This document shows, piece after piece, positions 1 through 9,834 of a DNA stretch of 9,834 nucleotides (the first letter of the stretch is position 1; every line of letters begins with the position of its first letter). The notes beneath the pieces were generated by a model, which was not told the DNA's origin, did no database searches, and was given only the letters and a program-made list of their open reading frames with translations. A program made the translations under genes and the position numbers. Source of the stretch: a virus (taxonomy: Duplodnaviria > Heunggongvirae > Uroviricota > Caudoviricetes); IMG/VR virus record IMGVR_UViG_2526164631_000019; one strand, written 5' to 3'.

Positions 1-1101
1 GCTATCCATTCCGGGATTTTTGCCTCAAGCTCAAGCTGCGTGGTAAAGCCGCTGTTATCAATGGTGTGCCCGGCTTTTGCAATAATCCAGTCCTGATTAT
101 CAATCTCGCTTTTAAATCCTGTTACCGTGCCATGCATTTCGGGGTAGAGTTCTGCTCGTCCACGTGCCAGCGTGATGGAGAATGATGCGGCTCCGCGTTG
201 TAGTTGTTGCCACTTTGCCGCCGCTGCGCGTCTTGCTGCCTGCTCGTTCTGATAAGTCTTGCGTAACACAAACACATTGCCTTCCGCGCCTTCCATATAG
301 TCACCTTCACGGCTGCTGCTTTTCTCCTTTTTTGGGTTTGGCGGTTTTACGGCGTTTTCACGTCTGACTTTTTTTCTTTTCCCGTAATTAAGATCAAGTC
401 CAGTAGGCGCGTACCCCCGTATACGCTTCGCGGTCAGCAATGCGGAACTGATGGCGATCGCCGCTGCTGCGTGTGATGGCGAACGATGGCAACGGCTGGC
501 CCTGTGCGTTCACGCCACCGCCGGGCATGATGAATAACAGATTACCGCTTTTTACCGTGGTGATTGCGCCCAGCATTTCCGCCATGCGCGTAAGGAAGGA
601 CATGTCGCTTTCTTCGGTCTGGTCGGCGTGGTCGATTTCGATATCCATCAGCATTTCGCTGATTTGCGGTTTCAGACCATACCGATGAGCGATGGCGGAT
701 ACCACACGCTCAACGGTCACATCATGCCAGGACACCTCACGTTTAACGTTAAATTCATCCCGAAAATCTGCGCTTCTGGCTGAAACAGTCAGCCTGTCCG
801 GCGGTCCTTCGTGAGCGATTTCATCAACAATGTAAGTGCCTTTTTCTGTCAGCGGTTCTCCCTTCCAGCCAATGAGAACCGTCAGGCGCGCGCCCCGTGG
901 CGGTAGCTGCAACTGACCATCCGCATCATCCAGCGTGATGGTGAGCTGGTCCGCCTCAAATCCCCGGTTGTCGGTCAGTGACAGGCTCATCAGGCGCTCT
1001 GCCACGCCTGACAGCGTTTTACCCTCCGCGAGAATATCAAAATCCGGCATTTTCACGGGGTCTGTGCCCTGACTGAGCAATTGCATGGTGGTGTCGGTCA
1101 T
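1..1101 (-). CDS. Phage tail protein D (P2 gpD / late control D family); apparent frameshift near 392-401, 3' end beyond left edge of window
   Basis: ORF 394..1233(-) contains the motif SLSLTDNRGFEADQLTITLDD, typical of the gpD family as recalled. The likely start is the ATG at 1099-1101 (MTDTTMQLL), preceded by GGGAGGGAG. The frame ends at a TGA at 394-396, but another minus-strand frame continues as DLNYGKRKK...KWQQLQRGAASFSITLARGRAELYPE...GFTTQLELE to position 1, which reads like the gpD C-terminal half. Confidence 0.8.
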
Positions 1102-1258
1102 CTGCTCCCTCCCTGTGCGGCATGGTCGCATGTGCGTGCGGAGGGGGTTACTGCTTTTTGTTGTCGCCGGGTCGGGAGAACGGCGCAGGGGTGAGATTAC
1201 GCGCGTGGTGGGTGATGATTGTTGCCGAATCATTTAACGGATACAAGGGGCTGAAGCT

Positions 1259-2442
1259 ATGAGTGAAACTCGTTTTCATGGTGCCCGTGTTACGGAAAAT
1301 ACCGACCTGGTAACAGCGATTAACGATGTTGATTCCAGCGTTATCGGTATCGTGGCAACGGCGGATGATGCGGACGCGAAGCTGTTCCCGCTGAACAAGC
1401 CCACACTGCTGACCCGCGTTAATGACGTGCTGGGAAAATGCGGGACAACGGGGACGCTTTATCGTGCGCTTAAGGCCATCGCAGACCAGGTGAGCACAAA
1501 GGTGATCGTCGTTCGCGTGGCTGAACACAAAGAAGAAGACGGAAAGACGCAGGATCAACTGGTTATCGGTGGTTCTGAGGATGACGGCAGCTATACGGGG
1601 ATGTATGCGCTGCTTGTTGCAGAGCAGGATGAAAGCATCGGATACCGTCCGCGTATTCTGGCCGCGCCGGAGCTGGACACGGAGGCGGTGACAAAATCCC
1701 TGTGCGTGATTGCGGGTAAACTGCGCGCGTTTGTGTATGCCTCATGTCACGGCTGTAACACGATGGCTGAGGCGATTACCTACCGCCAGAAATTCAACGA
1801 ACGTGAGGTGATGCTCTTATGGCCGGACTTCATCGCCTACAACCCGAAAAGTGGCAAAAACGAACGTTCCCCGCGCCTGCCTATGCGTGCGGCCTTCGTG
1901 CGTACATTGACCATGAGCAGGGATGGCACAAATCACTGTCCAACGTTCCGGTTAAAAATGTGCTGGGGATGTCGAGGCATGTGTTCTGGTCGTTGCAGGC
2001 CGAAGACAGCGATGCCAACAGCCTCAACAACAAAGAAATCACGACCATTATTCGTCGCAACGGGTTCCGCTTCTGGGGCAACCGCACACCGGAAACGAAC
2101 GCCTACATCTTTGAGGTGTATACCCGAACCGCACAGGTGCTGGCTGATTCAATTGCAGAAGCGCAGTTTGAAACCATCGACAGTCCACTGACGCCTGCGA
2201 ACGTGAAGGATGTTATCAGTGCCATCAGGGCAAAACTGGATTCACTGGTTACTGCCGGGAAACTGATTGGCGCGGAGTGCTGGTATGACGTGGTGGATAA
2301 CAGCACCACGGATTTACGTCAGGGACGTGTGCGTATTCGCTATAAATATACGCCCGTTCCGCCACTGGAAGACATGGAGCTTTACCAGACGTTTACTGAT
2401 GAATACTTTGAACCCGCATTTGCGGTGCTGGGAGGTGCCTGA
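1259..2442 (+). CDS. Contractile tail sheath protein (P2 FI-like); apparent frameshift between about 1856 and 1872
   Basis: ORF 1259..2191 carries the N-terminal two thirds (MSETRFHGARVTE...LLWPDFIAYNPKSGKNE). ORF 1819..2442 in another frame carries the conserved C-terminal part (IDHEQGWHKSLSN...RRNGFRFWGNRT...YTRTAQV...YKYTPVPPLE). The AAGGGG ribosome-binding site lies about 10 nt upstream of the ATG at 1259. Joined length is about 394 aa, typical for sheath. Confidence 0.88.
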
Positions 2443-2953
2443 TGGCTGTGCCAAAACATCTTCGCTTTTTTACGCTGTTTGTGGATGGTGAAAACGAAGT
2501 GGGTAAGGTGACGTCCGTCACTCTGCCCAAACTGACGCGCAAAACCGACAGCTACCGGGGGGGCGCATGATGGGTGCGGTAAGTATTGATCTCGGTCTGG
2601 ACGACTCCGCGCTTGATGCGAGCTTTGTCATGGGGGGCGCAGTTCGTGAGCTGTTCCTTAAGTATGGCGGCACGATTGACGGCACGCTGCTGCGTTTTGC
2701 GGGTGAATACTACACCGATGCAGAAAGCGACCTGTATGAAGTCGAAATGCGCGGACGTGTGACGGAAATTGATATGGGGGAAGCCAAACAGGGCGAAGCC
2801 ACATCACACACTTACGCCATTAAAAACACCTACTACAAGCTGAGTGTTAACGATCGCCCGTTGTGGGAGATTGACCTGCTGAACTTCATTTACCGGAAGG
2901 ACGGCAAGGACATTGTGCCCGATCGCATCCGTTCCGCGCTCGGGCTTGGCTGA
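2442..2953 (+). CDS. Tail tube protein (P2 FII-like); apparent frameshift at G7 homopolymer 2557-2563
   Basis: The ATG at 2442 overlaps the sheath stop (TGATG). The N-terminal ORF reads MAVPKHLRFFTLFVDGENEVGKVTSVTLPKLTRKTDSYRGGA and stops at 2568-2570. ORF 2567..2953 in a different frame continues GAVSIDLGLDD...LRFAGEYY...EVEMRGRVTEIDMGEAKQGE. Both parts match the FII family as recalled (VTLPKLTRK, DLGLDD, MRGR..EID.GE.KQGE). Confidence 0.85.
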
Positions 2954-2965
2954 TAAGTAATATGC

Positions 2966-2986
2966 AGGCGGCGCAGTGCGTCGCCT
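2966..2986 (+). promoter_or_regulatory. GC-rich stem-loop between tube and E genes (possible attenuator or mRNA stability element)
   Basis: AGGCGGCGC agt GCGTCGCCT gives a 9-bp stem with one G-U pair and a 3-nt loop. It sits between the tube stop (2951-2953) and the E ribosome-binding site. No U-tract follows, so it is not a classical intrinsic terminator. Confidence 0.3.
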
Positions 2987-3007
2987 CTGACTGAAAGGAG
3001 TTTCCTG

Positions 3008-3373
3008 ATGAAAGAGACGAAAAACATCGATACCGAAAACACGGTCGTTGCTGACACTGTGAAAGAAACCAGTGAGCGTGGCATAAAACTTACCCAACCA
3101 ATTGAGCGAGGCGGCGAAAAAATCACGTATGTGGAGATCACCGGAGCTATTGAGCAGGCTGGATCTCTGCGAGATTTGTCGTTGTCTGATGTGCTGAATC
3201 TGAAAGCGGAATCCATGTTTACGCTGCTGTCACGCGTGACATCACCGCGACTGGATGAAGTGACGATCAAAAAAATGGCATCCCGTGACTTTATTCAGTT
3301 ATGTGTGGTTGCCGTAAATTTTTTGAGCGGTGCGGACTCTGGCGGGAAGAACGAACAGGCGACGGAAGCCTGA
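3008..3373 (+). CDS. Tail assembly chaperone (P2 gpE-like)
   Basis: 121-aa ORF with AAAGGAG 7 nt upstream of the ATG. Its position directly between tube and tape measure is conserved for this chaperone in contractile-tail clusters. It contains the slippery heptamer T_TTT_TTG at 3319-3325. Confidence 0.75.
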   Translation: MKETKNIDTENTVVADTVKETSERGIKLTQPIERGGEKITYVEITGAIEQAGSLRDLSLSDVLNLKAESMFTLLSRVTSPRLDEVTIKKMASRDFIQLCVVAVNFLSGADSGGKNEQATEA

Positions 3374-3537
3374 TCACGGTTGTGTGCTTTGAGCACATAG
3401 AAGACTTTGTGGCAGATATTGCCGTTATTTTTAACTGGTCGCCCGCCGAAATCTTCATGATGACGCCCGGCGAAGTGGTTAGCTGGCGTGAGCGGGCGGC
3501 ACTTCGCAGCGGGAATGCAGACAATGAAGACTCTTGA
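3008..3537 (+). CDS. Frameshift-extended chaperone (P2 gpE+E'-like), predicted -1 ribosomal frameshift at 3319-3325
   Basis: The -1 frame opens exactly at the slippery site and runs to a TGA at 3535-3537, encoding FERCGLWREERTGDGSLITVVCFEHIEDFVADIAVIFNWSPAEIFMMTPGEVVSWRERAALRSGNADNEDS. Its end overlaps the tape-measure start. Confidence 0.6.
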
Positions 3538-6331
3538 TATCCGGGTCGCTTTCAGCGCCGTTGACAGGCTGACCCGGCCTGCCGAAAACGCCCGCCGCCT
3601 GATGGGGCAGTTTGGTGACTCCATCCAGCGAACGCAGGGGGCGATCAAAAATCTCGAGCGTCAGGCGCGTTCATTTGAGCGCGCCCGCGACGCTGTCAGT
3701 AAAGCGGATGCGGGTATCGTGAAAGCACGACGCCAGCTTAACGCCCTTAATCAGTTACAACGCACGGGTACAGTGCTCAGCGAAAAGCAACAAAAGCTGA
3801 TGCAGCAGTTAAGCACCCGGCTTGAACGCCTGAATGAATCGCGCACACGGGAAATTCAGAAAATGCGGGAGCTTGGCGGAGAGCTGAAACGCCACGGCAT
3901 TTCCCTGACAGGCAGCGATAGCACCATCCAGCAGGCCATCAGACGCACCGAACAGTACAACAACCAGCTTGAACGCGAACGGCAGGCGCTTGCGCGTGTA
4001 ACACGTGCGCGTGAGCGGTATTCGCGCGCGCAGGAAACCGCGGGAAAACTGAAAACAGGTGGTGCGCTGGCAATTGGTGCGGCAGCGGCTGGCAGCTATG
4101 CTGCCGGGCGTTTTTTGCAGCCTGCGATCGGGTTCGGGAAAGAGATGTCCCGCGTTCAGGCACTGACGCGAATCGACCAGAACAGCCCGCAGTTTAAGGC
4201 GCTGCGTGAACAGGCGTTAAAACTTGGCTCTGAAACGCAGTTCACTGCAGGCGATGCCGCCAGTGGGCAGGCATTTCTTGCAATGGCTGGCTTCACTCCG
4301 CAGGCCATTCAGGCTGCGCTTCCCGGCGTACTGAGCATGGCAACGGCTGGCGGTATGGATCTCGGCGAAACGGCAGATATTGGCTCAAATATCCTGACGC
4401 AGTTCGGCCTTTCTGCTGACCAGATGGACCGGGTCGGTGACACGCTCACCGCAGCGTTTACCCGTACCAACACTGACCTTCGCGCACTGGGCGAAACCAT
4501 GAAATATGCAGGTCCGGTGGCGGGCAAGCTGGGAATATCGCTGGAGCAGGCCGCAGCGATGGCGGGCGTGCTGGCGAATATGGGTATCAGGGGAAGTGAT
4601 GCCGGGACGGCAATGCGTGCCAGCCTGGCTCGTCTGGCATCACCGCCAAAGGCGGCAGCAGAGGCGCTGAAAGAGCTTGGTGTGGCAGTCTCTGACGCGA
4701 ACGGCAAAATGCGCCCGATGGAGGATGTGCTGGCTGACCTTTATAAAGCCACCCGCAAATACGGGGAAGTTGACCGGGTATCGTTCTTTAAGGATATTGC
4801 CGGAGAAGAGGCTTTCACATCATTTATGGCCCTCGTTGATGCGGCAGGTGACGGCTCCTTACCCAAACTGAGAAAAGAACTTGAAGGCGCGCGCGGTGAG
4901 GCTGAACGCACAGCAAAGGTTATGGCCAACAACCTTGACGGCGATCTGAAATCACTCGGCAGTGCATGGGAAGGGGTGCGCATCCGCATTGCAGATCTGA
5001 TTGACGGTCCGCAGCGTTCTGTCACGCAGTGGCTCACGCGGGTGGTATCGAAGGTGACGGCGCTGGCGCAGGCCCATCCGGCACTGACGCGCCAGCTACT
5101 GGTTGCAGGCGGTGCTCTGCTGGCAATGACTGCAACCATAGGCTCGTTGTCGCTGGCTATTGGTGTGCTTGCTGGCCCACTGGCAAAACTGCGTCTTGGT
5201 TTTTCCCTCCTGACCGGATCATTGAATGTTGTCAGGGTTCTGCCTGCATTATGGGGAATGGTGACGGGTTCCATTTCGTTACTGGGAGGCGCTATCGGGG
5301 CGCTGTTCAGTCCGGTCGGATTGATTGCTGCTGCGTTTGTGGCTGCGGCGGTTCTCATCTGGAAATACTGGGAACCCATCAAGGCGTTTTATGCAGGGGT
5401 GTTCAGTGGGATTATGGAGCGACTGGCCCCGTTGCGCGAAACCTTTGAACGGTTTGGCCCTGTTTTTGACGCAATCGGAAGCGGGATCAGCCAGGTGTTT
5501 AACTGGTTTAAATCGCTGCTGTCACCGATGGAGTCCAGCAAGGAAACGCTGGATAAATGTACCAGTGCTGGCGAGATATTCGGTAACGTTCTTGGCGGTG
5601 CGTTACAGCTTGTTCTGACACCTGCAAAAATGCTACTGGATACGCTGGCGTGGATACTTGAAAAACTCGGTGTGCTTCCGGATGAAGCGGAAAGGGCGCG
5701 CAAGAAAATCGAAGACGCACAGCGTGCGGCCATTCTTCAGGACAAGGTTGCCTTGCTTCAGGGGGACCTGGCGAAAATCAATCTGCCGAAGCCTGTGGAA
5801 AATGGCAATGGCACCGGAGGTGATAAACCCAAAGACAACAAACCGCTCACAGACAGCAATACCGGTACGCTACGCAGACTCAGCAAAATTGCTGATAACA
5901 CAGGTAAGCTGGTTGATGAGACGAAAAAACGCATTGGCCCCGGCGATATTGTCTTTAAGAACCTGCCCCGCGCACTTGCTGTTCGTGGGGAGTGGCAGGA
6001 GCGGAAGATTGCGCAGGTCAGTAAGCCTGCTTCCGCAATCAACATCACACCCGTGGTCCCGACTCCTCTGCCTCCGGCGCTGGTCCCTGTTGTTGCGGCC
6101 AGCTCCCGCCCGGTGGCGGAGGCCATACGATCGCCAGTGGCATCAGTTCCTGCAACTTCCCGTAACCGGGAGCCTGTTGTCTCCGGATTTGGCGGTGAAA
6201 TTCATGTTCATCTGCATAACGTTGTTACGCAGAATCCCCGCGAACTGGCGAAACTGGTCGGTGAAATGGTCAGGGCAGAATTGGAACGACGCGACCGTGC
6301 CGGACGTGGCAGTTTTTACGATAAAGATTGA
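3515..6331 (+). CDS. Tail tape measure protein (P2 gpT-like)
   Basis: Uninterrupted ORF of roughly 940 aa. The N-terminal region is rich in charged, coiled-coil-like sequence, the central region has long Gly/Ala/Leu-rich hydrophobic stretches and the C-terminus is Pro-rich, which is typical for tape measure proteins. Candidate starts are GTG 3488, ATG 3515 and ATG 3524; the exact start is uncertain. Confidence 0.9.
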   Translation: MQTMKTLDIRVAFSAVDRLTRPAENARRLMGQFGDSIQRTQGAIKNLERQARSFERARDAVSKADAGIVKARRQLNALNQLQRTGTVLSEKQQKLMQQLSTRLERLNESRTREIQKMRELGGELKRHGISLTGSDSTIQQAIRRTEQYNNQLERERQALARVTRARERYSRAQETAGKLKTGGALAIGAAAAGSYAAGRFLQPAIGFGKEMSRVQALTRIDQNSPQFKALREQALKLGSETQFTAGDAASGQAFLAMAGFTPQAIQAALPGVLSMATAGGMDLGETADIGSNILTQFGLSADQMDRVGDTLTAAFTRTNTDLRALGETMKYAGPVAGKLGISLEQAAAMAGVLANMGIRGSDAGTAMRASLARLASPPKAAAEALKELGVAVSDANGKMRPMEDVLADLYKATRKYGEVDRVSFFKDIAGEEAFTSFMALVDAAGDGSLPKLRKELEGARGEAERTAKVMANNLDGDLKSLGSAWEGVRIRIADLIDGPQRSVTQWLTRVVSKVTALAQAHPALTRQLLVAGGALLAMTATIGSLSLAIGVLAGPLAKLRLGFSLLTGSLNVVRVLPALWGMVTGSISLLGGAIGALFSPVGLIAAAFVAAAVLIWKYWEPIKAFYAGVFSGIMERLAPLRETFERFGPVFDAIGSGISQVFNWFKSLLSPMESSKETLDKCTSAGEIFGNVLGGALQLVLTPAKMLLDTLAWILEKLGVLPDEAERARKKIEDAQRAAILQDKVALLQGDLAKINLPKPVENGNGTGGDKPKDNKPLTDSNTGTLRRLSKIADNTGKLVDETKKRIGPGDIVFKNLPRALAVRGEWQERKIAQVSKPASAINITPVVPTPLPPALVPVVAASSRPVAEAIRSPVASVPATSRNREPVVSGFGGEIHVHLHNVVTQNPRELAKLVGEMVRAELERRDRAGRGSFYDKD

Positions 6332-6337
6332 GGAGTC

Positions 6338-6832
6338 ATGGCCATGATGATGATCTACGGCATGTTTGTTTTTGAGCTGCGCACATTGCCGCATCAGCAG
6401 TTACAGCAAAATAAAAGCTGGCGGCATGTGAAAAATGAACGCGTTAACCGTTCAGCAAGCTGGCAGTATATCGGGGCAGGCGATGATCGCATCGTGCTTT
6501 CTGGTGTGCTTTATCCTGAAATCACAGGTGGCGAAGTGTCGCTGTCGCTGCTGACCACGCAGGCGTATACAGGACGCCCCTGGCCTCTGATTGATGGCGT
6601 CGGACAGATTTACGGCATGTATGTACTGACTGAAACGAATACGACCCGCTCCGAGTTTGATCGCTACGGTAAGGCGAAAAAGATAGAATTTTCACTGACT
6701 CTTGAACGCTGTGATGAGGATTTGCGGGAGCGCCTGCAATCCTCATCGTTCAGTGATATGCTGTCCGGCTTCAAAGATAAGGTCACATCATCCCTTAACA
6801 GCGCGGCCAGCTCCGTTAAAGGGCTGTTTTGA
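6338..6832 (+). CDS. Tail protein U (P2 gpU-like)
   Basis: The product begins MAMMMIYGMFVFELRTLP and contains WRH...LSGVLYPEITGG...WPLIDG...IYGMYV...RSEF, matching gpU as recalled. GGAG at 6332-6335 favours the ATG at 6344 as the true start. The gene follows the tape-measure stop directly. Confidence 0.85.
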   Translation: MAMMMIYGMFVFELRTLPHQQLQQNKSWRHVKNERVNRSASWQYIGAGDDRIVLSGVLYPEITGGEVSLSLLTTQAYTGRPWPLIDGVGQIYGMYVLTETNTTRSEFDRYGKAKKIEFSLTLERCDEDLRERLQSSSFSDMLSGFKDKVTSSLNSAASSVKGLF

Positions 6833-6839
6833 TTAACGC

Positions 6840-6869
6840 AAAACCGCTAATGGTCAGATTAGCGGTTTT
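6840..6869. terminator. Hairpin terminator between convergent gpU and invertase genes
   Basis: AAAACCGCTAAT ggtcag ATTAGCGGTTTT is a perfect 12-bp stem with a 6-nt loop, followed by a T-rich run (cattttcc) on the plus strand. It starts 8 nt after the gpU stop and overlaps the last codons of the invertase ORF. Confidence 0.6.
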
Positions 6870-7458
6870 CATTTTCCTGAGTCTGCCTGGTTGTTTCTTC
6901 AGCCTGTATATCGCCTACAGGGTGATAACGATAAATCGTCGATATGCCGATGTCGTAAATGATCGCCAGTTGTTTCCTGTCATGACCGTTTTTAATCAGC
7001 CTCGCTATTTGCTCGTGTTGTTCTTTTGTCAACTTCGGGCGACGTCCGCCAATGCGTCCTTGTGCGCGTGCTGCTGCCAGCCCGGCCAGTGTACGCTCTA
7101 CAATTAATTCACGTTCCATTTCGGCTAAAGCTCCCATGACGTGAAAAAAGAAACGCCCCATGGGTGTTGATGTGTCAATGCTGTCCGTTAGACTACGGAA
7201 ATTAACACCTTTTTCCCGCAATTCCTCAATAAGCGTGATCAGGTGTTTCATACTTCTGCCCAGTCTGTCCAGCTTCCAGACAACCAGCGTATCTCCTTCT
7301 GATAGCGTTCTGAGCAGTTTTTTCAATCCCGGTCTGGCTGATTTCGTTCCGCTGATTTTATCTTCAAAAATCAGTTCACATCCTGCGCACTCCAGCGCGT
7401 TACGCTGCAATTCTGTATTCTGGTCATTTGTTGATACGCGGACATAGCCAATAAGCAT
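6859..7458 (-). CDS. Serine site-specific DNA invertase, Hin/Gin/Cin/Pin family
   Basis: The 199-aa product begins MLIGYVRVSTNDQNTELQRNALECAGCELIFEDKISG and contains TLVVWKLDRLGRSMKHLI, FRSLTDSIDTSTPMGRFFFHVMGALAEMERELI and GGRRPKLT, nearly identical to Gin/Hin over the catalytic domain as recalled. The catalytic Ser is at position 9. A C-terminal helix-turn-helix region follows, then a tail of about 15-20 extra residues. Confidence 0.95.
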   Translation of the reverse strand: MLIGYVRVSTNDQNTELQRNALECAGCELIFEDKISGTKSARPGLKKLLRTLSEGDTLVVWKLDRLGRSMKHLITLIEELREKGVNFRSLTDSIDTSTPMGRFFFHVMGALAEMERELIVERTLAGLAAARAQGRIGGRRPKLTKEQHEQIARLIKNGHDRKQLAIIYDIGISTIYRYHPVGDIQAEETTRQTQENENR

Positions 7459-7513
7459 GATGGATCCCCTGAATAAAAACCGGGGATGATGCCAGTTAGC
7501 CGTAATCTCTGCA

Positions 7514-7539
7514 TTTTCTTAAACGTTGGTTTAGGAGAA
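7514..7539. repeat. Crossover site 1 for the invertase (hix/gix/cix-like 26-bp site)
   Basis: TTTTCTTAAACG TT GGTTTAGGAGAA. Its reverse complement TTCTCCTAAACC AA CGTTTAAGAAAA resembles the hix consensus TTCTTGAAAACC AA GGTTTTTGATAA. The central dinucleotide is at 7526-7527, 68 bp from the invertase start codon. Confidence 0.8.
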
Positions 7540-7884
7540 GCGGCAAAACGGAATGTGGGCACAGGAGATAATCAGATACCGGATATGGGAGCATTCGCTT
7601 CTGGTTCGGGATGGTTCAGGCTACCAGGTGGATATATTGTTCAGTTTGGCACTTTTGCAGGAAACACGACCCGCTTTATCAGTGGACACTTCCCTATACC
7701 ATTCCCTAATCAGCCGATGGTTTCAGTCAGTGTTATGTCTGATGCCGTTCAGTCAGACCCGTCGATTCCTGCCCCGCAGGTTTTGTCTGTAAATTTTGAA
7801 CATATCAGTAATTCAGCGTGGCGTGTGGCAACCAGTGATATCTCACAGCAATACAGATTCAGTTATATTTCGATAGGACGGTAG
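7528..7884 (+). CDS. Silent alternative tail-fibre C-terminal cassette (no start codon of its own; expressed only after inversion)
   Basis: An open frame starts at the crossover core and encodes [62 protein letters not shown]...[12 protein letters not shown], ending at TAG 7882-7884. The first codons (GGT TTA GGA GAA = GLGE) match those just inside the site in the expressed fibre gene. A tail-fibre assembly gene follows 2 nt downstream. Confidence 0.7.
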   Translation, partial: [118 protein letters not shown]

Positions 7885-7886
7885 AA

Positions 7887-8327
7887 ATGCAGAAATATAT
7901 TTTCAGTGCCGATAAAAATGCGTTTTTCCCTGTGGAGCTTAAAATCGCTTATCAGGAATCCGGCGAATGGCCCGATGATGGAATCGAAATTGACGACACT
8001 GTTGCTGCCGAATTTATGAAGGAAGCACCAGAAGGAAAATACAGAGGTGTCATCGACGGAATGCCTGCATGGATTGATATTCCACCGCCAACTCATGAGG
8101 AACAAATTGCCGCAGCCGAACTGAAAAAGCAGCAATTGATTAATCAGGTCAACGAATACATAAACAGTAAGCAATGGCCTGGTAAAGCGGCGATTGGTCG
8201 CCTGAAAGGTGAGGAACTGGTGCAATATAATTTGTGGCTGGATTATCTGGACGCACTGGAACTGGTCGATACTTCCGGTGCGCCAGATATTGAATGGCCT
8301 ACGCCTCCGGCAGTTCAGGCCAGATGA
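7887..8327 (+). CDS. Tail fibre assembly protein (Tfa), partner of the silent cassette
   Basis: 146-aa ORF with AGGA 8 nt upstream of the ATG. The C-terminus LVDTSGAPDIEWPTPP is the Tfa-type motif also found in the convergent Tfa (TDTSTAPDVIWPELP). Its position directly after a fibre cassette fits the role. Confidence 0.85.
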   Translation: MQKYIFSADKNAFFPVELKIAYQESGEWPDDGIEIDDTVAAEFMKEAPEGKYRGVIDGMPAWIDIPPPTHEEQIAAAELKKQQLINQVNEYINSKQWPGKAAIGRLKGEELVQYNLWLDYLDALELVDTSGAPDIEWPTPPAVQAR

Positions 8328-8892
8328 CATCCGGTGCGGTGCTGGTATCTGTTGCCGTCACCGCGTCAATATAATCCAGCACAGCGTTAAGTCGGGTGTT
8401 TTCTGGCTGCGTCAGCTTCCGCACGGCCTGTAATTTCAGTTGAATCAGACTGATGGAAGCCATTGCAGCATCAATCAGCGACTGGCGCTTTACTTCTGCC
8501 GCGTCTAGTGCGGCGCTATGCTGTGCCTCGGTATCCGTCACCCATTTCTCACCATCCCATTTATCGTATGGCGTTAACGGTGAAAGCGTGACATAACCGT
8601 CTTTGATGGCACCGATATAATCCACTGTAACAGCTGCGCCATTTTCGATTGAGTAAACAGTCTCATTGCGGTGGTCTTCTTCATGGCTCCATCCCTTACC
8701 CGTAAATACTGCCACTCTTCCCGGAATGTATTCGCCCGGGTCAATACCAGTGGAACAAGCGGGCATACTTACGCCAGTATTAATATATTCATCAGACCAG
8801 CCAGTATATTCATACGTAACTGCCTCATAATAAAAACAACGCATATTACCCGGTACTGTAGCCAGCCCATTTTCATCAAAAACAGGTTTCAT
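8299..8892 (-). CDS. Tail fibre assembly protein (Tfa), partner of the currently expressed fibre C-terminus
   Basis: 197-aa ORF whose ATG overlaps the fibre stop codon by 1 nt (TAATG). The C-terminal motif is TDTSTAPDVIWPELPEA. It lies inside the invertible segment. Confidence 0.85.
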   Translation of the reverse strand: MKPVFDENGLATVPGNMRCFYYEAVTYEYTGWSDEYINTGVSMPACSTGIDPGEYIPGRVAVFTGKGWSHEEDHRNETVYSIENGAAVTVDYIGAIKDGYVTLSPLTPYDKWDGEKWVTDTEAQHSAALDAAEVKRQSLIDAAMASISLIQLKLQAVRKLTQPENTRLNAVLDYIDAVTATDTSTAPDVIWPELPEA

Positions 8893-9834
8893 TATTTAGC
8901 CCTCACTAGAAAGTTAAATGCAATATTTCGTGGGCGGGTTTCTGTACCTACATTTCCACTAATTTCACCATAACGTTTAACGCTACGAGAGCTAATAGCT
9001 CGTAGTGAGGAAGGCACCCTAAGACCGGGTTCGTCCGTTTTAACTATTCCCCCGTCACCATATGTAGCCAGTATTCCTGGGTTTACTCCTTCCCGTGTAC
9101 TTCCTGCGACAAGCCCGTCCCCCGTCCACAATTCCATATTGTGTGCATGATCCATAATTGTGTGTGATTGCCCTGAAAGTAGGGTACGTCCGACATCAAT
9201 CCCGCGTCCGTCATCCCAGATACGAATGAAATCACCGCGTGCGTCAGGTAATGCCAGCGCCGGAAACACTTTCGCCAGCACAGGGTAATCAGTGGCAGAG
9301 AATTTCGCGCCGTTGAACTTCAAAAACACCATGCTGGACCAGCTATCGATTACGGTATCTGGCATTGCTGCGGACGGCCAGAAGAACGGAACGCCAATAG
9401 CTGGAGCACCTTCTCCCAAACCAAGGTAATCAAGAACTCCCTGAGTGCTGGTTTTACCAAGAATGGCACGTCCAACACTTGTCAACGCGGTTAACGCGGC
9501 ACGATCTGCCCCTGTAAAATATGGGAGTTTATCTGCTGATGTAGCAAGCTCCGCCAGCGCCGTCAGGGTGGCATCCTTCGGTTGCTTACCCGCAAGCGCG
9601 TTAGTCATGGTGGTCGCAAAATTCGGGTCATTGCCCAGCGCCGCAGCCAGTTCGTTCAGCGTGTTCAGTGCATCAGGTGACGAATCTACAAGTGCGGCAA
9701 TCGCAGCCATAACGAAAGCCGTGCTTGCGATCTGGGTACTATTAGTCCCCTGTGGCGCTGTTGGTGTTGTTGGCGTTCCGGTCAGTGCCGGGCTGTTTAA
9801 TGGTGCTTTCTTGTTCGTTTCATCCATTACCGCC
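8892..9834 (-). CDS. Tail fibre protein (P2 gpH-like constant region fused to variable C-terminal domain); 5' end beyond right edge of window
   Basis: The frame is open to the window edge, so the Met at 9827 is internal. The constant part (DETNKKAPLNSPALTGTPTTPT...NTLNELAAALGNDPNFATTMTNALAGKQPKDATLTALA) resembles P2-type fibres as recalled. The part downstream of the crossover site contains a tail-collar-like motif (LPDARGDFIRIWDDGRGIDVGRTL). Confidence 0.9.
   Translation of the reverse strand, partial: AVMDETNKKAPLNSPALTGTPTTPTAPQGTNSTQIASTAFVMAAIAALVDSSPDALNTLNELAAALGNDPNFATTMTNALAGKQPKDATLTALAELATSADKLPYFTGADRAALTALTSVGRAILGKTSTQGVLDYLGLGEGAPAIGVPFFWPSAAMPDTVIDSWSSMVFLKFNGAKFSATDYPVLAKVFPALALPDARGDFIRIWDDGRGIDVGRTLLSGQSHTIMDHAHNMELWTGDGLVAGSTREGVNPGILATYGDGGIVKTDEPGLRVPSSLRAISSRSVKRYGEISGNVGTETRPRNIAFNFLVRAK
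9411..9436. repeat. Crossover site 2 for the invertase, inside the fibre coding sequence
   Basis: TTCTCCCAAACC AA GGTAATCAAGAA is inverted relative to site 1. The half-site inside the segment matches the reverse complement of site 1 at 11 of 12 positions, and the core AA is identical. On the minus strand it encodes VLDYL-GLGE with the core in codon positions 2-3, the same phase as at site 1. Confidence 0.8.

Follow-up and report, generated by a model that had tools for sequence, protein, structure and literature searches.

A 9,834-nucleotide stretch of tailed-phage DNA (the window) raises the question of why three structural genes of a contractile tail, encoding the late control protein D, the sheath and the tube, are broken within its first 3 kb when an inversion switch for the tail fibres stands intact beside them. 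The first-pass annotation left two explanations side by side: the letters contain localized indel errors, or the locus is a decaying prophage or tailocin remnant in which the invertase module has outlasted particle production. The window is the entire contig AIHA01000057.1 of GCA_000250215.2, a 2012 draft of Escherichia coli DEC12A, which has serogroup O111 and belongs to the Michigan State University (MSU) strain collection, and the broken products carry the label ‘Escherichia coli DEC12A’ at NCBI.

The window holds every part of a P2-type contractile tail module, namely sheath, tube, the E/E+E' chaperone pair with its slippery site, tape measure, U and D, with Pfam matches to PF04984, PF22671, PF17482, PF04985, PF06528, PF10145, PF06995 and PF05954. 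Gene D (late control D or baseplate hub, PF05954) occupies 1..1101 on the minus strand; it starts at 1101, and the left contig end is reached 12 nt short of the stop, leaving the final four codons outside. On the plus strand follow the sheath gene FI (1259..2442), the tube gene FII (2442..2953), the chaperone pair (3008..3537), an intact gene for a tape measure protein of 935 aa (3524..6331) and an intact gpU gene (6344..6832). The closest named phages are P88 and its Xuanwuvirus relatives among the P2-like Peduoviridae (e.g., 500465-2 and P884B11), with DNA 93-95% identical over 79-93% of the window; for P88 itself the identity is 95.2% over 79%, and it is the tail region alone that the window covers. 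The gene order is shared as well: D lies on the opposite strand, and the sheath, tube, E/E', tape measure and U genes converge on the invertase and fibre cassettes. Fibre cassettes vary by isolate in this group, and the three frameshifts are absent from its phage records and from finished E. coli genomes.

Alignment to intact homologues bore out that D, sheath and tube are each frameshifted within the first 3 kb of the deposited letters. The lesion in D had been described as one frameshift; the loss of frame is there (at codon 235 of 369, with a net shift of +1), but it is not a single event. When positions 1-3100 were aligned to two finished E. coli genomes, extra single Ts were found at 345, 355, 363 and 399, together with two compensating shifts of T runs, at 333/336 and 375/376. 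The cluster at 333..399 thus packs eight anomalies, all of them involving T only, into 67 bases lying 333-399 nt from the left contig end, and two of the T insertions sit outside any T run. In the sheath gene, one A is absent between 1862 and 1863, where CGAAACG has become CGAACG, and the break falls at codon 201 of 394 in a run of three As. In the tube gene, one G is absent after 2564, next to a run of seven Gs; G7-CGGC has become G7-CGC, with the G7 itself kept and the break at codon 41 of 170. The rest of the window, beyond these three genes, shows no other disruption.

The comparison with the same locus in related strains, which the first-pass annotation had proposed, was made against 5,426 complete E. 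coli genomes. One of these, NZ_CP077479.1 (E. coli O111:H2 strain 12A), matches positions 3300-9834 of the window at 100.0% identity, hypervariable fibre cassettes included, and the runner-up complete genome reaches 96.6-97.2% over the same interval. Strain 12A is evidently DEC12A, on the basis of its name, its O111 serogroup and this unique sequence identity. Another member of the same accession series, ‘O111:H21 strain 15A’, differs from a DEC15 draft contig by two substitutions and three indels in 9.5 kb, which supports the view that the series consists of DEC strains sequenced anew. The finished genome matches the window exactly from 3215 to 9834, and the chaperone, tape measure, gpU, invertase, both Tfa and fibre cassette genes have open reading frames, so that the earlier description of them as intact stands base for base. 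In strain 12A, both of the prophage copies described below have uninterrupted frames for D (369 aa), sheath (394 aa) and tube (170 aa), and complete genomes in general are without the lesions.

The annotation of strain 12A by PGAP might suggest that D is broken there too, as a 267-aa VgrG/Pvc8 protein and a pseudo fragment, and we rejected this candidate, since translation gives an open reading frame of 369 aa. The same treatment of D was seen in many genomes (e.g., locus L001, 7988-9097), where 369 codons are open and yet the annotation gives a 267-aa ‘contractile injection system protein, VgrG/Pvc8 family’ next to a pseudo fragment, and this inconsistency of annotation could be mistaken for gene disruption.

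The P88-like locus is common: roughly one in four complete E. coli genomes carries it (~1,370 of 5,426). Short queries centred on the D, sheath and tube lesions nevertheless found no perfect match in any of the 5,426 complete genomes, the ~1,370 with the locus and all copies in strain 12A included; the D cluster had no complete-genome match above 93.6%, and the best match of the sheath site, like that of the tube site, was 99.2% with one gap. An exact look-up across 153 billion gene positions returned the 310-aa product of the frameshifted sheath gene from this contig alone. For other loci, the lesion regions were compared by coordinate-based alignment. One of them (L022, GCA_010257095.1) shares the insertion site and lacks the lesions, and it had been considered as a same-strain control; it was rejected as such, because it is more distantly related and differs at hundreds of positions. 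The lesions are thus reproduced neither in the independent sequencing of the same strain nor in close relatives, as would be expected of pseudogenes.

Strain 12A carries two prophages of this type. Copy 1 lies between pheA and raiA, and a second, paralogous P88-like prophage (copy 2) lies beside tRNA-Leu/pgsA. The relevant coordinates in NZ_CP077479.1 are 1,359,839-1,362,836 for copy 1 and 2,228,368 onward for copy 2. Identity between the two is 96.4% over the span that begins at hok/ogr and ends at the invertase, and 96-99% in the stretch from D to the invertase; the fibre cassettes of the one are unrelated to those of the other. In a three-way comparison, all 18 substitutions that separate the window from copy 1 turned out to be copy-2 alleles, arranged with at least seven switches between the copies. 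From the left end, the window carries copy-2 alleles at 48-282, copy-1 alleles at 300-406, copy-2 alleles at 427-523, copy-1 alleles at 544-908, a copy-2 allele at 933, copy-1 alleles from 1054 to 3083, copy-2 alleles at 3182 and 3214, and copy-1 alleles onward. Positions 1-330 have a perfect match in no copy of strain 12A, which makes the left end a true mosaic rather than a third copy. Nor could a third matching place in strain 12A rescue the lesions, since they are unmatched anywhere in the complete genomes. The differences private to the window amount to six net indels and two shifts of T runs, with not one private substitution in 9.8 kb relative to copies 1 and 2. A draft contig of a sister strain, AIHC01000010.1 of DEC12C (L032, corresponding to window positions 2203-5442), also mixes the copies, changing from copy-2 to copy-1 alleles between 2941 and 3083. 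It is another chimera, whose switch point differs from that of the window, and its tube gene is intact.

We therefore hold with high confidence that the broken D, sheath and tube genes are an assembly artefact in a collapsed repeat, the frameshifts being real in the file but not in the biology. The features that a collapsed repeat would produce, two near-identical copies in one genome and the alleles of both on one contig, were both found. The draft assembler would have merged reads of the two prophage copies into one contig, the consensus flipping between copy-1 and copy-2 alleles and gaining or losing single bases at differences between the copies and at base runs that are difficult to resolve. 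The resulting miscalls in or near homopolymer runs would break D, sheath and tube on the contig, and the three genes would be intact in the cell. The tube lesion fits such a scheme closely, as the copies differ within the G run at exactly that spot (2561 and 2564), with G7-C-GGC in the one and G4-T-GG-T-GGC in the other; the sheath deletion has no adjoining difference between the copies. We infer that read-level homopolymer or carry-forward errors acted together with the mixed-copy consensus, and the T-only pattern so close to where the contig stops points to flow-based (pyrosequencing-type) errors under low coverage, the platform being putative. The contig resembles other collapsed or chimeric repeat consensus sequences of early next-generation drafts in its two-copy mosaic, in private differences that are indels only, in their clustering at the contig end and at base runs, and in the differently chimeric draft of the sister strain DEC12C. 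It differs from a simple collapsed repeat with homopolymer miscalls in the two T insertions outside a T run, which need errors of the carry-forward type or of alignment.

Of the two explanations left open at the start, localized indel errors is thus the one that gained support, from the open genes of the finished genome, the two-copy mosaic, the privacy of the lesions and the ease with which they are undone. The first-pass annotation had named a corrected sequence with intact D, sheath and tube genes as the result that would speak against disruption, and six single-base edits (removal of four Ts, addition of one A and one G) reopen all three frames. With the A restored, the sheath gene encodes a 394-aa protein identical to that of copy 1 in strain 12A, and with the G restored, the 170-aa tube protein is likewise the copy-1 protein. 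With the four Ts removed, D is open for 365 codons, to the contig end, and differs from both copies only at the mosaic and run-shift positions.

The lesions are, after all, present in the deposited sequence, and prophages do decay, the integrase of copy 1 in strain 12A having already been cut by IS679. They could accordingly be read as a real and very recent pseudogenization of copy 1 in the DEC12A stock sequenced in 2012, absent from the stock that was finished later. We consider this very unlikely. A single stock would have had to gain at least six indels independently without any substitution, and eight changes within 67 bases that all involve T form an unnatural spectrum; natural decay would be expected to leave substitutions beside indels, and here the private substitutions number 0, the net indels 6 and the run shifts 2. 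Such decay also leaves unexplained both the mosaic of copies 1 and 2 and the different chimera in DEC12C, and the lesions are missing from all other assemblies. As to whether the finished genome might itself be at fault, sequencing errors are far likelier to destroy an open frame than to recreate one, and chance repair of six indels in strain 12A is not credible. Real lesions could in principle be lost when short reads are used to polish a sequence that contains paralogous copies, and finished genomes are not free of error, as strain 15A, with a tube frameshift of its own, illustrates.

The position of the lesions near base runs brings up a different biological reading, in which slipped-strand variation at the G7 tract of the tube gene and the A6/A7 tract of D creates real sub-populations with the tail switched off, one of which was caught by the draft consensus. 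Tract variants do recur. A 128-aa split tube product is recorded in 91 blocks of the sequence collection, and at the loci inspected the run of seven Gs has become G5, G6 or G8; a T5 variant of D turns up again in the DEC15 drafts and in further assemblies; and the G6 variant has a gapless match in two finished O145 genomes. In the window, however, the G7 tract is kept and the tube lesion falls in the CGGC that follows, the D lesions include T insertions outside homopolymers, and the sheath lesion falls in a run of only three As. Most assemblies with tract variants also have many other broken genes, as is seen in error-prone long-read assemblies, and this points to sequencing error; the intact tract is found in more than 99% of finished genomes. 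Slippage as the source of the lesions in the window is thus extremely improbable. The broader proposition, that the G7 and A6/A7 tracts of P88-like prophages are slippage-prone switches turning the tail on and off, with the DEC12A and DEC15 drafts representing off-variants rather than errors, we regard as highly improbable.

The DEC15 drafts (at least DEC15A and DEC15B, under four accessions) share T5 in D and G6 in the tube gene (L013, positions 7803 and 9990; L016, positions 8364, 10552 and 10627). Finished strain 15A has T6 and G7, yet one G is absent further on and the tube gene is annotated as frameshifted. The pair of DEC15 draft and finished 15A had been meant to show cleanly whether homopolymer errors ran through the whole project, and it was set aside as ambiguous, the T5/G6 of the one standing against the T6/G7 of the other in a finished genome with a missing G of its own.

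Frameshifting is also a legitimate part of gene expression in this operon, and the breaks in D, sheath and tube might be taken for programmed recoding sites akin to the slip between E and E+E'. The canonical slippery heptamer T TTT TTG at 3319-3325 in the E chaperone gene, with an open reading frame for the E' extension in the -1 frame (3301-3537), is a site that we take, from established knowledge of P2, to be a genuine programmed -1 frameshift in the same operon. The likelihood that the three breaks are of this kind is practically nil: essentially all relatives, the same strain included, have D, sheath and tube each in one uninterrupted frame, and a slippery heptamer is found at none of the three lesions. 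By analogy with P2, the E/E+E' slip is predicted to be the sole genuine programmed frameshift in the window.

The other half of the initial question concerns the inversion switch, which had been called intact, and this description holds up. The serine DNA invertase (6859..7458, minus strand) is intact, with Resolvase and HTH_7 domains. The left hix-like crossover site, TTTTCTTAAACG TT GGTTTAGGAGAA, lies at 7514..7539 (plus strand), and the right one, whose reverse complement is TTCTTGATTACC TT GGTTTGGGAGAA, lies inside the fibre gene at 9411..9436 (minus strand). These two 26-bp sites are in inverted orientation and have a 15-mer in common, and two such sites were found where 0.01 would be expected by chance. 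Between them and around them lie a silent alternative C-terminal fibre cassette with its Tfa (7486..8327, plus strand; cassette 7486-7884, Tfa 7887-8327) and the expressed Tfa and tail fibre gene H (8299..9834, minus strand; Tfa 8299-8892), with H represented by its C-terminal 314 codons and its N-terminus past the contig end. Since the right site lies within the fibre gene, inversion would swap the C-terminus of the fibre together with its Tfa. Two related draft contigs, AIHE01000075.1 of DEC12E (L025, 1-2519) and JICD01000138.1 (L024, 198-3222), have window position 9424 joined to 7540 in reverse, which is the junction expected for the opposite orientation (window 7526-7540 and 9410-9424). 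The cultures that were sequenced thus contained both orientations, and inversion evidently occurs in culture.

These elements, a serine invertase and two inverted sites bracketing alternative fibre C-termini with their Tfa genes, are those of the Din-family switches, such as Mu Gin with the G segment, P1 Cin with the C segment, e14 Pin and Salmonella Hin. The likeness extends from the serine recombinase with Resolvase and HTH_7 domains to the inverted pair of 26-bp hix-like sites, one of them in the fibre gene, and to the two fibre C-termini that each have their own Tfa. A P88-like prophage with an invertible fibre switch is already well-described biology, which the broken tail genes leave untouched, and the locus is an ordinary one. 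The switch of the DEC12A prophage would be a working-looking part of a complete prophage. The same JICD01000138.1 contig holds, at 1-197 of L024, a piece of sheath sequence (window 1349-1545) fused directly to window position 6461, and this joint is either a deletion from tube through tape measure or another misassembly. In related prophages beside tamB, a SopE-like gene (PF05364/PF07487) lies between gpU and Tfa (L004, 14764-15486; also L005, L008, L009, L011 and L012), occupying the place of the window's invertase and second fibre cassette.

Biologically the finding matters little, and its use is as a warning. Where a short draft contig lies inside a multi-copy prophage repeat, apparent pseudogenes on it are not to be counted as prophage decay or domestication, and such cases are quickly settled by a finished genome of the same strain together with the paralogous copy.

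The remaining alternative, a decaying prophage or tailocin remnant that has retained its invertase, fails on the gene content of the locus in strain 12A. Copy 1 encodes an integrase, a replication endonuclease, the portal, both terminase subunits, scaffold, capsid and head completion proteins, holin, endolysin, spanins, baseplate and fibre, and the locus is a complete P2/P88-type prophage. R-type tailocins such as pyocin R2 and carotovoricin Er have the P2-like contractile tail gene set in common with it, and carotovoricin has a fibre invertase too. An R-type tailocin would be missing head, packaging, replication and integration genes; all of these are present in strain 12A, where the locus adds portal, terminase, scaffold, capsid, head completion, replication and integrase genes to what the tailocins have. 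A tailocin remnant is ruled out by this full prophage in the finished genome.

In copy 1 of strain 12A, the integrase gene is interrupted by the IS66-family element IS679, with a 47-codon remnant beside pheL (L015, 4884-8585; NZ_CP077479.1, 1,326,883-1,330,584). It is the only genuine sign of decay that we saw, it lies outside the window, and the insertion may lock the prophage in place, so that the prophage may not excise although its tail genes are intact. At the prophage end past ogr there are genes for a Hok/Gef toxin, a TM2-domain protein, a Com-like zinc-ribbon regulator and a DNA methyltransferase (L001, 5781-7494), which are accessory cargo beside the attachment site. One relative carries HxsD, two radical-SAM genes and a fourth gene between ogr and D (L006, 3867-7264), an interval that looks like a cargo hot spot of the P88-like group.
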